Part shown: piece after piece, positions 7,048-14,643 of the stretch
Layout of the letters: the number at the start of each line of letters is the position of its first letter
Position numbering within the stretch: position 1 is the stretch's first letter
Assembly (NCBI GenBank): GCA_016866355.1
Contig: VGMN01000007.1
Span: 20,179-84,178, forward strand
From: Bacteroidota bacterium
Lineage (GTDB): Bacteria > Bacteroidota > Bacteroidia > Chitinophagales > Chitinophagaceae
DNA length: 64,000 bases
Direction of reading: 5' to 3'
Position numbers and translations under genes: made by a program
The notes under the pieces: generated by a model
What the model was told of the DNA's origin: nothing
Seen by the model: the letters and a program-made list of their open reading frames with translations, nothing else
Database searches by the model: none

Positions 7048-7557
7048 ATGAAACTGTTCCAAACTACTGCTCGTTTTTTAGTTGCGGCTACCCTTTTACT
7101 TTCCTTAGAAGCCTGCGATCGTGATGACGATCTTTTTGTTAGAAAAGAGTATAGTCGCGTAGATGTTCCTCTTACAGGAGCTCAAAATTTCCCTCCAAGT
7201 CCTTCGCCTGCCTTGGGTGCTATGGACATTCATTACAATACAGCCACTAAATTATTATCCTACACCATTCGTTGGTCCGGATTAAGCGGCCCTGTTGCTA
7301 CTTCTCCAATCCCTGGCATGTCTATTCATGGAATGGCACCGGCTGGGTTTCCTGCCAACCCCATTCAGCTTTTTACCTTATCAGGAATCACTAGATGCGC
7401 AACCGTATCTAATACTAGTTGCGGAACATACAGTGGCCGTTTGTTTGTTGATGGCGTACTTATCACAGAGGAGAATTTGCTAAACGGCTTTTACTATGTT
7501 AGTATTCGCACCGCTGCATTTCCAAATGGTGAGTTAAGAGCACAAATTAAATTCTAA
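7048..7557 (+). CDS. CHRD-domain lipoprotein
   Basis: Lipobox LEAC then acidic DRDDD. LTGAQNFP, YVSIRTAAFPNGELRAQI resembles the CHRD consensus. Confidence 0.8.
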   Translation: MKLFQTTARFLVAATLLLSLEACDRDDDLFVRKEYSRVDVPLTGAQNFPPSPSPALGAMDIHYNTATKLLSYTIRWSGLSGPVATSPIPGMSIHGMAPAGFPANPIQLFTLSGITRCATVSNTSCGTYSGRLFVDGVLITEENLLNGFYYVSIRTAAFPNGELRAQIKF

Positions 7558-7574
7558 TCTAGAAGACCGAATAC

Positions 7575-7602
7575 AAACCCCGCCTACCAGCGGGGTTTTT
7601 TT
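7575..7602. terminator. Intrinsic terminator between convergent CHRD and SET genes
   Basis: AAACCCCGC-ctacca-GCGGGGTTT stem followed by a T tract on plus. Confidence 0.85.
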
Positions 7603-7625
7603 ATGCAAATCAATTACTAAAAGAA

Positions 7626-8015
7626 TCATTGCTGCTCTATCGGAAACCACAAAGGAGAGGGATTGTCAAAATCTCCATGGTAATTAATAAAGAGCTCCTC
7701 CCCTTTTTGAATTGAAGTGACGGTGACTATGCGCATCAATTCCGCTGAAAAATCCATCTCATAAATGCAATTACTCGGGCAAGCATGATTATAAATAGAT
7801 AAGTAACCAAGTCCTACGGATACTTGGGAACGATCTTCTCCCCATTCAAAAATGTAATCATGCAAACGCGTTTTATCAACCAATAAGCGATCTGTATTCG
7901 CTAGAACAATTACTGGAGATATTTCAATGGTGGTTCCGGCCTCGAGCATTTCGTTTGTATAGACACCTCTTCCATGTTTAGCTGAGGGAGCAATAAAAAG
8001 ACAGGGCAGTTGCAT
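7626..8015 (-). CDS. Bacterial SET-domain protein (putative lysine methyltransferase)
   Basis: HGRGVY, SIYNHACPSNC (NH motif) and GEELFINY SET motifs. Confidence 0.88.
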   Translation of the reverse strand: MQLPCLFIAPSAKHGRGVYTNEMLEAGTTIEISPVIVLANTDRLLVDKTRLHDYIFEWGEDRSQVSVGLGYLSIYNHACPSNCIYEMDFSAELMRIVTVTSIQKGEELFINYHGDFDNPSPLWFPIEQQ

Positions 8016-9543: not shown

Positions 9544-9562
9544 AGCCAATAAACAATTGTAT

Positions 9563-11398
9563 ATGTGTGGAATTGTTGGCTATACCGGTTATCGTGACGC
9601 GTTTCCAGTTGTCATTAAAGGATTAAAAAGACTTGAATACCGAGGATATGATAGTGCAGGAATTGCCTTGCACAATAAGGGGCTACATGTTTATAAAAAG
9701 ATGGGGAAAGTAGCAGACCTGGAGGAGCATGTAGTAGGAAAAGACATTGCAGGTAAAACTGGCATCGGTCACACACGTTGGGCTACACATGGAGAACCAA
9801 GCGACAAAAATGCGCATCCACATCGTTCAGCAAGTGGAAAATTGGCTATGATTCACAACGGAATTATTGAAAACTATAGTCAATTAAAACAAGAACTACT
9901 TCAAAAAGGATACCACTTCAACAGCGATACTGACACTGAAGTATTACTCAATTTTATAGATGAAATAAAAGAAAATAATCACTGTTCGTTAGAGGAGGCA
10001 GTTCGTATTGCATTAAAACGTGTAACTGGCGCCTATGTGATTCTACTGATCGAACAAGACGCCCCCGATACAATTCTAGCAGCTCGAAAAGGGAGCCCGC
10101 TGGTAATAGGTGTAGGAAAAGGAGAGCACTTTTTAGGTTCAGACGCTTCTCCTATGCTTGAATACACTAAAGAGGTAGTTTATGTAAACGACTATGAGCT
10201 AGCCATTATTAGTCCAGATGAACTTATCTTAAAAAACTTGGGTAACGAAATAGTAACCCCCTATGTACAAAAGCTAGATATTGAATTAGCTGCTATTGAA
10301 AAGGAAGGTTTTGATCATTTCATGCTAAAGGAGATTTTTGAACAACCGCAGACAATTTATGATTGTTTGCGTGGCCGCTTAGATGCACAAAAAAATAAAA
10401 TTACACTTAGTGGCATTGAGCAATATGCCAAAGAGATCTGCTATGCAAATCGAATCATCATGGTTGCATGTGGTACCAGTTGGCATGCCGGTTTGACAGC
10501 AGAATACTTTTTTGAAGAGTGTTGCCGCATTAATGTAGAAGTTGAATATGCATCAGAATTTCGTTATAGAAACCCCGTCATCACTCCAGGTGATGTTATT
10601 ATTGCTATTTCACAAAGTGGTGAGACTGCTGATACGTTAGTGGCCATAGAAAACGCTAAGTCAAAGGGTGCAATTATTCTTGGAGTAGTAAACGTAGTAG
10701 GATCCTCGATTGCACGCATCAGTCATGCGGGAGCGTATACACATGCAGGTCCTGAAATTGGAGTCGCTTCTACCAAAGCCTTTACTGCACAATTAGCGGT
10801 GCTAAGTATGATTGCCCTAAAAATTGCGCAACTAAAAGGAACCATGCCTACTGAAAAAATCAATTACTTGTTGAATGAACTGGAAGAGATCCCTGGAAAA
10901 GTACAGCAACTACTAAATGACACCACTGCCATTCAATCCATAGCAAAGAAGTATGCTGCAGCCCGAGACTTCTTATATCTTGGCAGAGGCTTTAACTTTC
11001 CGGTAGCACTTGAAGGCGCACTCAAGTTAAAGGAGATATCCTATATCCATGCAGAGGGCTATCCAGCAGCTGAAATGAAACATGGTCCCATAGCCTTAGT
11101 AGATGACCAGCTTCCAGTGGTGTTTGTAGCCACCAGGGATGGTTATCATGAAAAGGTAATTAGTAATATGCAAGAAATTAAAGCAAGGAAAGGAAAAGTT
11201 ATTGCAGTAATCACTGAAGGAGATGAAATGGCTACATCCCTAAGTGAGTCCGTTATGACAGTGCCGGCTTGTGATGAAATGCTCGCTCCTTTATTGACGG
11301 TGGTTCCCTTACAACTACTAGCTTATTATATAGGGATAGAAAGAGGATGCGATGTAGATAAACCTCGTAACCTGGCTAAGTCTGTAACGGTGGAGTAA
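9563..11398 (+). CDS. glmS: Glutamine--fructose-6-phosphate transaminase
   Basis: N-terminal MCGIVG, RLEYRGYDSAG, GHTRWATHG, SQSGETADT and C-terminal PRNLAKSVTVE. Confidence 0.98.
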   Translation: MCGIVGYTGYRDAFPVVIKGLKRLEYRGYDSAGIALHNKGLHVYKKMGKVADLEEHVVGKDIAGKTGIGHTRWATHGEPSDKNAHPHRSASGKLAMIHNGIIENYSQLKQELLQKGYHFNSDTDTEVLLNFIDEIKENNHCSLEEAVRIALKRVTGAYVILLIEQDAPDTILAARKGSPLVIGVGKGEHFLGSDASPMLEYTKEVVYVNDYELAIISPDELILKNLGNEIVTPYVQKLDIELAAIEKEGFDHFMLKEIFEQPQTIYDCLRGRLDAQKNKITLSGIEQYAKEICYANRIIMVACGTSWHAGLTAEYFFEECCRINVEVEYASEFRYRNPVITPGDVIIAISQSGETADTLVAIENAKSKGAIILGVVNVVGSSIARISHAGAYTHAGPEIGVASTKAFTAQLAVLSMIALKIAQLKGTMPTEKINYLLNELEEIPGKVQQLLNDTTAIQSIAKKYAAARDFLYLGRGFNFPVALEGALKLKEISYIHAEGYPAAEMKHGPIALVDDQLPVVFVATRDGYHEKVISNMQEIKARKGKVIAVITEGDEMATSLSESVMTVPACDEMLAPLLTVVPLQLLAYYIGIERGCDVDKPRNLAKSVTVE

Positions 11399-11415
11399 AT
11401 TTTTAAATCACCCCT

Positions 11416-13629
11416 ATGAATAAAATTAATAAACAACCTCTTTCCTCACTGGGGTTTGGATTTATTGACCCCGCTTTTATTCCCAAAGGGAAGGATGAAT
11501 ATTATTTACGAAACAGACAACATCGATCTAAGACACCCTACCGCAAATTGACGGCAAAAGAAATACAGACCCTTCTTCGGAATGATAATAGCGCTGATGA
11601 TTGGAACAATATTGAGGTGGCTCCAACATTTGATCCTAAACTTGTTAAACGTTGCAGTTTTTTTGGAAAAATCAGAATCGGTAAGCTAGAGGCACTATTT
11701 CATGAGTTCAACAACTTAAGAATGCCTGTGGGTATTTATAACAGTACCATTATCAGTTGTGATATCGGAGACAATGTTGTGATTGACCAGATTAGTTTCA
11801 TGAGTCACATTATTACAGGAAATGACGTACTGCTTGTCAACATTCAGGAACTATCCAGTACTGATCATGCAAAGTTTGGAAATGGAGTGGTAAAAATTGG
11901 CGAAGACCCCGCCGTCAGAATATGGATGGAGTTAGCAAATGAAAACGGGGGAAGAAAAGTACTTCCCTTTAATGGTATGCTTCCAGGAGATGCGTGGATT
12001 TGGTCAAAATATAGAGATAATCCCAAGCTCCTAGAAAAACTTCAAGAGTTTACTGATGATAAATTTGATCGAAAAAGAGGTTACTATGGAAAAATAGGCG
12101 ACCGTACAGTTATTAAAAACTGTGAAATTATTAAAGATGCTTGGATAGGAACCGATGCCTACATCAAGGGTGCCAACAAACTAAAGAATATCACGATTCT
12201 TTCCTCACCTGAGGCAACTACACAAATTGGAGAAGGTTGTGAATTAGTCAATGGTATTGTGGGTTATGGATGTCGCATTTTTTATGGCGTGAAAGCAGTA
12301 CGATTTGTTATGGGCACAAACTCCCAATTGAAGTATGGAGCCCGTTTGATTAATTCCTACTTAGGAGACAATTCTACTATCTCCTGTTGCGAGGTATTGA
12401 ACTCCCTGCTTTTCCCTGGACATGAGCAACATCACAATAACTCATTTCTTTGCGCAGCAGTAATTCAAGGTCAAAGCAACTTGGCTGCTGGAGCAACTAT
12501 AGGCTCTAATCACAATTCACGTGCAGCCGATGGGGAATTAGTTGCTGCACGCGGTTTTTGGCCGGGTTTGTGTGTTAGCTTAAAACATAACTCCTATTTT
12601 GCCTCTTTTAGCATACTTGCTAAGGGAGATTTTCAAGCTGAAATCAATAACAGACTTCCCTTCTCATTGATTAGTAACAGCACAGATAATAATGAGCTGG
12701 TAATAATGCCAGGGTATTGGTTTGAGTATAACTTATATGCGCTGGCACGTAACAGTGAAAAATATGAAGCACGCGATGGAAGAACTGATAAAAGAATCTA
12801 CTTGGAGTTTGATTACCTCGCACCAGATACAATTAATGAAATGATTGAAGCCCTCTCCATTTTAGCATCCAGCACGGGTGAGGCTTATATAAAAAAGAAT
12901 CGAAAAAAAAGTAACCAATCTACAGAAGCGATTGGTAATACCTTGTTACAAAATGATCCTGAAACAGTAGCGCAACTGACTATTTTGCTGAAAGAAGCTG
13001 AGAATAGCCGTAGATCTGTTCGATTGACCAAAGTGAATGCAGCTTATCGTAATTACCATCGGTTAATTCGTTACTACTGCATCAAAGAGTTATTTCGCTT
13101 AACTCCTAATGGGACTGATTGGATGCAATACCTAAAAATTCGTTGTCAAAAGATAAAACAGCAACCCGCAGCTTGGATTAATGTAGGCGGTCAACTACTA
13201 CGTGAACAAGCCCTTGATCAGTTAAAGAAAAATATCTGTGCAGGTAAAATTAATAGCTGGGATCAAATTCATGATTGGTATCATCAGCAAAGTGAGCGAT
13301 ACCCTATAGATAAAATGGAACATGCGTTAGCAGTGTTACTGCTAATTACAAACACCAGTGCCAACCGGTTGAGTCGGAACAAGATGCTCTCCCTATTAGC
13401 AGAAGCAGAGGAAACACAGGCGTGGACTATGCAGCAAATAAAAAAATCCAGGGCTAAAGATTATCAAAACCCATTTCGAAAAATGTTATACAACAATGAG
13501 CGTGAAATGGAACAGGTGATGGGCAAACTAGAAGACAATCCATTCATCAATAGTCTGGAAATCAAACAAAATCTTTTCTACCAACAAGCTGCACAGCTAC
13601 GGCTTACCTTGACAAAAAAGAAAAAGTAA
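11416..13629 (+). CDS. DUF4954-family protein with left-handed beta-helix (hexapeptide) repeats
   Basis: Opens with YRKLTAKEIQTLLRNDNSADDW. Hexapeptide runs (IGDRTVIKNCEIIKDAWIGTDAYIKG) and GSNHNSR. Starts 17 nt after glmS. Confidence 0.8.
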   Translation: MNKINKQPLSSLGFGFIDPAFIPKGKDEYYLRNRQHRSKTPYRKLTAKEIQTLLRNDNSADDWNNIEVAPTFDPKLVKRCSFFGKIRIGKLEALFHEFNNLRMPVGIYNSTIISCDIGDNVVIDQISFMSHIITGNDVLLVNIQELSSTDHAKFGNGVVKIGEDPAVRIWMELANENGGRKVLPFNGMLPGDAWIWSKYRDNPKLLEKLQEFTDDKFDRKRGYYGKIGDRTVIKNCEIIKDAWIGTDAYIKGANKLKNITILSSPEATTQIGEGCELVNGIVGYGCRIFYGVKAVRFVMGTNSQLKYGARLINSYLGDNSTISCCEVLNSLLFPGHEQHHNNSFLCAAVIQGQSNLAAGATIGSNHNSRAADGELVAARGFWPGLCVSLKHNSYFASFSILAKGDFQAEINNRLPFSLISNSTDNNELVIMPGYWFEYNLYALARNSEKYEARDGRTDKRIYLEFDYLAPDTINEMIEALSILASSTGEAYIKKNRKKSNQSTEAIGNTLLQNDPETVAQLTILLKEAENSRRSVRLTKVNAAYRNYHRLIRYYCIKELFRLTPNGTDWMQYLKIRCQKIKQQPAAWINVGGQLLREQALDQLKKNICAGKINSWDQIHDWYHQQSERYPIDKMEHALAVLLLITNTSANRLSRNKMLSLLAEAEETQAWTMQQIKKSRAKDYQNPFRKMLYNNEREMEQVMGKLEDNPFINSLEIKQNLFYQQAAQLRLTLTKKKK

Positions 13630-14643
13630 CTAACGCTGCTTTATTAATAAGGCACTAATAACAGGGCGTTCCACTCCATTGTCTCCGGGTCTAACAGTAA
13701 GTCTATTTCCGATTACCATAGCCGTAGAGCCTCCCCCATCAAGATTAATAGCATCTGTACATCCAATAGATTTTAATAAGTTGGCAAGGTCGGCTAAATT
13801 AATTCCCGGATAACCAGCAGTAGCATTATCCCCCTCTACAGCTAGTAATACTAACCGACCAGCAGCAGTATATCCGATTGCCGTACGAGGTCTGGAGGTT
13901 GTATTATTGATATTTATTAACTCCTCCACATCGCTGATCCTGACGGAACCAGCTTGCAATAAAAGCGGAGAACCACCAATAGCAGCAACAACATTCCATA
14001 CAGATCCCCCAGCTGGAAACGTTTCGGTAGGTTGTGGCTGCGGTGCTGTTCCCTCGGCGTTAGGGCTTGGTGAAGTGTATTGATATATTAAATCATTACC
14101 AGCTCCAACAGAATAGATCCATGCAGTGGTGGGAGCCCCTGTTGGCGTAATACCCAATGCAGCACGAGTAGGATAATAAGAGGTAGATGAGCCATTATAG
14201 GTCCTTGTAACGGCTTTAATATTGGGCGAACTAACAACGTTATTGTATTTCACCAAACTATATGATTGCGTGCCTCCATAATAGCCTCCATTAATGGCTA
14301 CATAAACTAATCCAGTTTCTGCAGCAGCAAATTGACTGGGAGTCCGTAAAGTGGAAGACTGTACAGGCTTGAACTCAAAACGCCCTGAGGAGTAATCAAG
14401 TGCCACACAAAATGCTTTAACAGTTCGTCCGTTAAAAATTGTATCAAAAGTAAATGCTTGGATACCCGATGGAAAATTCAAGGAGAGTGTTGCGGAATAT
14501 TTCCACCCAGGAGCTAACGTGATCAATGGCGTAATAGGTGTAGGAGTTGGCGTGGGTGTACTACCTCCACCAGATTTTGATTTAGAGCAAGCCCCACTCG
14601 CTAGCAAAATTAAGAAGGGAACAAAAAGCAGAATTTTTTTCAT
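13630..14643 (-). CDS. Phosphodiester glycosidase (NAGPA/DUF2233-like) lipoprotein
   Basis: Lipobox SGAC and a PT-rich linker. AINGGYY, RPRTAIG, LLAVEG and AINLDGGGSTAM are NAGPA-family motifs. Confidence 0.88.
   Translation of the reverse strand: MKKILLFVPFLILLASGACSKSKSGGGSTPTPTPTPITPLITLAPGWKYSATLSLNFPSGIQAFTFDTIFNGRTVKAFCVALDYSSGRFEFKPVQSSTLRTPSQFAAAETGLVYVAINGGYYGGTQSYSLVKYNNVVSSPNIKAVTRTYNGSSTSYYPTRAALGITPTGAPTTAWIYSVGAGNDLIYQYTSPSPNAEGTAPQPQPTETFPAGGSVWNVVAAIGGSPLLLQAGSVRISDVEELININNTTSRPRTAIGYTAAGRLVLLAVEGDNATAGYPGINLADLANLLKSIGCTDAINLDGGGSTAMVIGNRLTVRPGDNGVERPVISALLIKQR

Follow-up and report, generated by a model that had tools for sequence, protein, structure and literature searches.

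The DNA analysed here (the window) is a 64,000-nucleotide stretch from a Chitinophagaceae member of the Bacteroidota (GenBank assembly GCA_016866355.1, contig VGMN01000007.1, positions 20,179 to 84,178), in which glmS is followed by a gene for a protein of the family DUF4954. Both peptidoglycan and lipid A draw on UDP-N-acetylglucosamine (UDP-GlcNAc), and GlmU tends to be regarded as a universal enzyme. From sequence comparisons and structure models, the DUF4954 protein is on balance probably a stand-alone trimeric N-acetyltransferase of glucosamine 1-phosphate (GlcN-1-P) serving the supply of UDP-GlcNAc; that it acetylates a glucosamine phosphate of whatever kind can be held with clearly better confidence. 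In the proposed pathway, GlmS, or NagB in reverse, would make glucosamine 6-phosphate (GlcN-6-P), an archaeal-type GlmM would convert it to GlcN-1-P, DUF4954 with acetyl-CoA would turn this into N-acetylglucosamine 1-phosphate (GlcNAc-1-P), which is the step of the GlmU C-terminal domain, and a separate one-domain uridyltransferase would make UDP-GlcNAc. DUF4954 would be interchangeable with the Bacteroidota-type GlmU (TIGR03991). A literature search found two papers that mention DUF4954 but none that deals with its function, and no assay of DUF4954 or TIGR03991.

The glmS–DUF4954 locus

The features of the locus, all on the forward strand, are as follows:

9563–11398, forward: glmS, glutamine--fructose-6-phosphate transaminase (TIGR01135 806.6 bits, cut-off 418)
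11399–11415, forward: intergenic gap of 17 nt with no terminator-like site
11416–13629, forward: DUF4954 and DUF6819 protein of 737 residues, long (about 735 aa) subfamily
11416–12078, forward: N-terminal part (residues 1–221), early beta-helix rungs and an insertion with conserved Asn175, Glu176 and Arg180
12079–12708, forward: left-handed beta-helix core (residues 222–431), GlmU C-domain-like, modelled as a homotrimer
12343–12513, forward: putative active-site segment with Arg310 (12343), Glu326 (12391), His340 (12433), Phe344, Asn355 (12478), Ala358-Gly359, Asn365 (12508) and His366
12709–13626, forward: helical C-terminal region (residues 432–737) including DUF6819, no clear fold match

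The likely start of glmS is the ATG at 9563 (Met-Cys), the start given by the open reading frame (ORF) finder being the TTG at 9557. In Pfam, the 737-residue ORF matched DUF4954 (PF16314) over residues 42–484 with 192.3 bits (cut-off 26.2) and DUF6819 (PF20683) over residues 583–715 with 26.4 bits (cut-off 23.5), along with weak beta-helix matches below cut-off. The distance of 17 nt reported in the initial annotation was confirmed, with the glmS stop ending at 11398 and the DUF4954 ATG at 11416. Cotranscription of the two genes is likely, judging from this gap and from the absence of a terminator-like site between them. A promoter scan gave a result below chance. No Rfam family matched in the 64-kb window, and hence no glmS ribozyme was found there.

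The association with amino-sugar genes extended to relatives. In 71 of the 80 closest loci, glmS lay no more than about 1 kb upstream of DUF4954 on the same strand; it was farther away in one more, and was also upstream in a genome from a different family (L197). In a distant subfamily, glmS was found downstream of DUF4954 in five Bacteroidales genomes and nagB adjoined DUF4954 in other genomes, locus L199 having both; nagB was also the neighbour in six metagenome loci, and two Bacteroidales loci had an hflX-like gene next to DUF4954. The link of DUF4954 to glmS or nagB is therefore recurrent, in several independent lineages, and not universal. Three Chitinophagaceae-like glmS–DUF4954 loci (57–65% identity) came from records titled Methylophilus, Beijerinckiaceae and Sphingomonadales (L148, L174 and L100), which are likely mislabelled or mixed bins.

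Putative active-site residues shared with GlmU

The initial annotation had aligned by eye a segment at 12430–12513 with the acetyltransferase site of Escherichia coli GlmU. The segment corresponds, with the letters as quoted, to residues 339–366 of the protein, and a profile comparison with TIGR03991 proteins over 150 columns gave the same register (P 93.6, E 2.2e-7). Arg310, Glu326, His340 and Phe344 are the counterparts of Arg333, Glu349, His363 and Tyr366 of E. coli GlmU, and Asn355, Ala358-Gly359, Asn365 and His366 those of Asn377, Ala380-Gly381, Asn386 and Tyr387. In the E. coli enzyme we take Glu349, His363, Asn377 and Asn386 to have catalytic or substrate-binding roles. The Arg310-Glu326-His340 spacings of 16 and 14 equal those of Arg333-Glu349-His363, and Asn355 and Asn365 each come with one extra residue relative to the E. 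coli spacing. In the short, Bacteroides-type subfamily (about 23% identity to this protein), Glu, His, Asn and Asn are spaced exactly as residues 349/363/377/386 of the E. coli enzyme in 57 out of 57 sequences.

The His and Asn positions were conserved in the family, Glu326, His340, Asn355 and Asn365 being near-invariant. Across 128 DUF4954 sequences (to 20% identity), Glu176, Glu326, His340, Asn355, Gly380, Pro415 and Lys449 were invariant, and Asn365 was kept in 117/117 long-subfamily and 57/57 short-subfamily sequences. In the motif as first described, the invariant histidine is His340, not His339, and the claimed aromatic is Phe344 here but Leu in the Bacteroides-type subfamily. Since position 339 is variable in the short subfamily, the candidate base is His340, which Glu326 would orient, while Asn355 and Asn365 would bind substrates at the interface between subunits. 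A Glu-His-Asn-Gly-Asn spacing pattern, written post hoc, matched E. coli GlmU, 17/17 TIGR03991 and 118/128 DUF4954 proteins; it occurred in 4 of the 1425 ORFs of the genome (two of them the DUF4954 and TIGR03991 proteins) and in 66 of 20,000 shuffles (0.33%).

Distribution of DUF4954 and TIGR03991

DUF4954 and TIGR03991 are near mutually exclusive in two phyla. Most of the surveyed genomes were draft or metagenome assemblies, and absence here means not found. Among 301 Bacteroidota genomes, full-length DUF4954 was present in 10/17 without TIGR03991 versus 20/284 with it. For 251 Bacteroidales the counts were 53 with DUF4954 only, 166 with TIGR03991 only, 22 with both and 10 with neither, so that DUF4954 was found in 53/63 genomes lacking TIGR03991 versus 22/188 carrying it. 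A second phylum (that of G618), very probably Spirochaetota, gave 83, 75, 2 and 11 genomes, respectively, out of 171; the gene order in one of its members (G684) matches that listed for Treponema pallidum, in which DUF4954 is present (PMC6953169). In the control, Bacteroides thetaiotaomicron, DUF4954 was also present. Swaps between the two proteins were seen inside a single family or genus (f98/g192, f169/g264, f142 and f23/g85), and these provide several independent contrasts.

The anticorrelation held with TIGR03991; canonical bifunctional GlmU, for which the initial annotation had proposed the test, was uninformative, since it was absent from all 74 TIGR03991-lacking Bacteroidota genomes tested, including the 53 Bacteroidales with DUF4954 only. 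Among these TIGR03991-lacking Bacteroidota, N-domain-only GlmU was present in four DUF4954-positive genomes. In the second phylum, all 67 genomes with N-domain-only GlmU were covered, 55 by TIGR03991, 10 by DUF4954 and 2 by both. DUF4954 was found in 136 of the 157 sampled genomes that have neither GlmU type, B. thetaiotaomicron and T. pallidum being species of this kind. A recheck with the A1 profile covered 17 genomes in which both DUF4954 and TIGR03991 are missing, and 9 of these also lacked glmS.

The survey yielded several further observations. One Bacteroidales genome with neither family (G393, L198:1851-4814) encodes a 369-residue GlmU directly before a divergent glmS, with a degenerate N-terminal motif and an intact acetyltransferase site, which was probably gained by transfer. 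In some spirochetes (L342-L344 and others), ORFs of about 350 residues match TIGR03991 only from position 141 of the model onward, and this partial TIGR03991 beside an N-domain-only GlmU constitutes a naturally split GlmU. Long and short DUF4954 subfamilies occur together in some genomes (G188, G511, G364 and G620), and one genome (G561) has two DUF4954 copies of equal score. Weak DUF4954 Pfam matches, one of them over cut-off, were seen in ORFs of about 850 residues (G288, G008, G084 and others); these probably represent the beta-helix of another protein family, so that Pfam counts of DUF4954 can be inflated.

Predicted fold and assembly

The AlphaFold2 model of the DUF4954 protein (predicted local distance difference test, pLDDT, 96.5) showed a long left-handed beta-helix with an insertion at about residues 146–224 and a helical part from residue 432, and together with the fold searches it backs the hexapeptide repeats proposed earlier. 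GlmU was the closest fold, as the initial annotation had anticipated, both in Foldseek (E 5.6e-4, TMq 0.21) and in VIA (Z 17.1, root-mean-square deviation (rmsd) 2.7, 199 aligned residues), only the C-domain of GlmU being covered. The archaeal bifunctional GlmU ST0452 (TIGR03992) matched over its beta-helix (Z 12.9, rmsd 2.5, 169 aligned), yet is only about 400 residues long, is bifunctional and has none of the extra domains of DUF4954. Atlas searches returned DUF4954 clusters only, and phmmer of the protein against solved structures gave nothing significant.

In addition to the left-handed beta-helix and the Glu349/His363/Asn377/Ala380-Gly381/Asn386 counterparts, DUF4954 resembles the GlmU C-terminal domain (EC 2.3.1.157; TIGR01173) in its predicted trimer with these residues at the interface and in a gene that adjoins glmS. 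Unlike GlmU, with which it shares 16–18% identity, it has no N-terminal uridyltransferase domain, no counterpart of Lys351 and no Tyr366, and it carries the large insertion and a helical C-terminal region of 300 residues. TIGR03991 proteins have the same catalytic spacing, and the fact that they and DUF4954 seldom occur together points to a shared job; they differ in their length of about 400 residues and their degenerate nucleotidyltransferase-like N-domain. No match was obtained on the DUF4954 protein for TIGR01173 (at E 0.01) or TIGR03991, and no GNAT family appeared in the Pfam scan or among the fold matches listed.

The GlmU acetyltransferase site requires a trimer (PMC2675579). A three-copy model of residues 168–484 is predicted with a score of 0.84 (best control 0.00), the mark for this score having been reached by 20/30 proteins solved as pairs and 1/23 solved as single chains; the runs agreed in at least 92% of contacts with pLDDT of at least 73. 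The modelled interface holds residues 310, 326, 340–344, 355, 358–359 and 365–366, although resemblance to beta-helix trimers of known structure may account for the pass of the model.

The runners-up in VIA were QdtC (Z 15.5), LpxD (Z 15.0) and LpxA (Z 13.1), which likewise combine a beta-helix with a helical extension, and the small Z margin over these sugar acyltransferases means that the fold alone leaves the function of DUF4954 unset. DUF4954 and TIGR03991 might accordingly replace each other in another acyl-transfer step, on a different amino or nucleotide sugar, a different enzyme carrying out the acetylation of glucosamine phosphate; the literature search, which turned up no assay for either family, also leaves room for this. 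It is nevertheless quite improbable in view of the linkage to glmS and nagB, the GlmU-like spacing of the residues and the complete coverage of the N-domain-only GlmU genomes, and QdtC, LpxD and LpxA differ in their nucleotide-linked sugar substrates, lower scores and lack of a matching gene context.

The C-terminal 308 residues were folded alone for a fold search, and nothing clearly matched residues 430–737 (best Z 6.1; Foldseek E 0.24); this result does not establish the fold as new or point to a function. Conserved residues of this region include Asn439, Arg445, Lys449, Arg453, Asp454, Arg456 and Lys681. Together with Asn175/Glu176/Arg180 of the insertion, the Arg445/Lys449/Arg453/Asp454/Arg456 group and Lys681 lie outside the GlmU-like site and would fit a bifunctional protein, with acetylation by the beta-helix and, in the extra domains, a second site of new fold for uridyl transfer, mutase or kinase activity, as would the shortened N-terminal part of TIGR03991 in many DUF4954-positive Chitinophagaceae. 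Such a protein is very improbable, given that 14 DUF4954-only genomes keep N-domain-only GlmU and so have uridyl transfer covered, that TIGR03991 is also short in spirochetes without DUF4954, and that the DUF4954 protein has no nucleotidyltransferase match (none to PF00483, the four matches of the genome lying elsewhere). The N-terminal decay of TIGR03991 in Chitinophagaceae had also raised DUF4954 as a uridyltransferase replacement, a candidate lowered by the same 14 genomes and the spirochete truncations. A yet broader proposal goes further: bacteria without GlmU, Bacteroides and Treponema among them, would depend on DUF4954 as their only and essential enzyme for acetylating glucosamine phosphate, and its additional domains would create a second site, catalytic or regulatory and of a fold not yet described, that couples the protein to GlmS/NagB flux. 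This proposal is unlikely.

Genomes with both proteins

In the source genome (assembly of 1.76 Mb, 96% complete), TIGR01173 stayed below cut-off genome-wide (best 62.8 bits, in another gene), which agrees with the suggestion that canonical glmU is missing. The further suggestion that DUF4954 fills this gap failed for this genome, as it encodes a TIGR03991 protein over cut-off with His and Asn intact:

C4:51215-52375: TIGR03991 (alt_bact_glmU) protein, 332.6 bits

As a stand-alone amino-sugar-phosphate acetyltransferase, DUF4954 is thus favoured at the level of the family, by conserved residues, GlmU fold, glmS/nagB neighbours and TIGR03991 exclusion, but not by a plain gap in this genome, where it would be either redundant with, or successor to, a diverged TIGR03991 protein. 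The genome also has an archaeal-type GlmM over cut-off, as do 4/5 DUF4954-only genomes, together with nagA, nagB and candidate one-domain nucleotidyltransferases; a 332-residue protein (G000 C1:188944) is a candidate for the partner uridyltransferase.

DUF4954 was present in 62 and TIGR03991 in 79 of 81 Chitinophagaceae genomes. TIGR03991 scored at most 385 bits in genomes with DUF4954 and 386–443 bits in the 15 top-scoring genomes without it. In the DUF4954-positive group the protein is often short at its N-terminus, is altered at Asp298, Asn300, Tyr308 and His333, invariant in the negative group, and shows 70% identity, slightly below the 74% of the negative group. This divergence follows one clade split (100/100) and counts as one event. 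The only clear exception was G603, which also lacks glmS. In Bacteroidales with both proteins, TIGR03991 E-values were likewise weaker (median 1e-119.5 versus 1e-132). The TIGR03991 gene (L001:1435-2673, G000 C4; L069-L098) is followed by tpiA in 30/31 Chitinophagaceae loci. With changes at many otherwise invariant positions, the TIGR03991 protein of the DUF4954-positive clade may have a new substrate.

Evidence against the proposed function and alternative roles

A number of findings weigh against DUF4954 as a GlcN-1-P acetyltransferase. TIGR03991 is retained in 60/62 DUF4954-positive Chitinophagaceae and in the present genome, its beta-helix about 70% identical among them with His and Asn intact, and four spirochete genomes keep DUF4954 alongside a full GlmU whose site is apparently intact except for Lys351 to Thr. 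TIGR03991 is itself a hypothetical equivalog, so that the distribution ties together two families of predicted function; the surveyed genomes are moreover related and not independent, so that the Fisher and Mann-Whitney values computed are overstated. Six very distant DUF4954 homologs are flanked by neither glmS nor nagB. Comparison with the single E. coli GlmU sequence falls in another register, and when solved sequences were searched with a profile, rungs of eIF2B and GDP-mannose pyrophosphorylase came out above GlmU. The proposed function also does not account for some 500 residues beyond the core, conserved charged ones among them. Lastly, the phosphate-binding residues of GlmU are kept only in part: Lys351 has no counterpart, Tyr366 is replaced by Phe or Leu, and the Arg333 counterpart Arg310 is present in one subfamily only (107/117). 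The phosphate ligands of GlmU are presumably Arg333, Lys351, Tyr366 and Lys392, and Lys351 varies among TIGR03991 proteins and some full GlmUs as well.

Some of these findings could be accommodated if DUF4954 acetylated GlcN-6-P, with a mutase then making GlcNAc-1-P. It would carry out, on a beta-helix, the job of GNA1, the eukaryotic GlcN-6-P acetyltransferase. Both conserved neighbours, glmS and nagB, handle GlcN-6-P, the partial loss of 1-phosphate ligands comes with new conserved Arg/Lys residues, and coexistence with TIGR03991 or full GlmU would be accounted for. GlcN-6-P as substrate is rather improbable all the same: E. coli glmU also adjoins glmS, so that the neighbour does not set the substrate, nagA in this genome would reverse the reaction, and an archaeal-type GlmM is at hand both here and in the same 4/5 DUF4954-only genomes.

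Alternatively, DUF4954 could lack catalytic activity and act as a sensor or regulator, binding an amino-sugar phosphate and exerting control over GlmS or NagB, a role in keeping with the tight linkage to both enzymes, the large helical domain, the retention of DUF4954 beside intact GlmU-type enzymes and the ranking of non-catalytic beta-helices such as eIF2B as best sequence-level matches. We consider this highly doubtful, as Glu, His and Asn are invariant at the catalytic positions, the exclusion of TIGR03991 would not be expected of a regulator, and 12 of the 53 DUF4954-only Bacteroidales lack glmS.

Other genes in the window

A glycan-use locus at 13630–34888 abuts the DUF4954 stop codon with zero gap. 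It encodes a phosphodiester glycosidase (NAGPA), two GHL10-like hydrolases, a DUF4434 protein, an AmpG-like transporter, a SusC/SusD-like pair, an N-acylglucosamine 2-epimerase (over cut-off) and a ROK regulator; it probably serves amino-sugar uptake and is not conserved beside DUF4954 in the relatives seen. At 7048–8015, mutS and mgtE are separated by genes for a protein with a CHRD domain and a small one with a SET domain.

Implications for UDP-GlcNAc synthesis

A one-domain uridyltransferase, GlmU_Cc (Ccan_15070), was shown in Capnocytophaga canimorsus, with orthologs in 30 of 45 Bacteroidetes genera, and most Bacteroidetes were suggested to be unable to make GlcNAc (Renzi et al., PMC4358021). 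No relation of GlmU_Cc to DUF4954 was found; it shows that Bacteroidetes split the GlmU steps and is the likely type of downstream partner. An unidentified acetyltransferase has been noted by Fong et al. in species with N-domain-only GlmU (bioRxiv 10.64898/2026.06.23.733835). A recognisable GlmU acetyltransferase is absent from many Bacteroidales and spirochetes, and DUF4954 is a candidate for the missing step. If the GlcN-1-P acetyltransferase function is true, the chemistry itself would be already known, DUF4954 standing outside TIGR01173 and TIGR03991, while a widespread family would be assigned and a gap in cell-wall metabolism filled in major gut bacteria and spirochetes, possibly offering a narrow-spectrum drug target.

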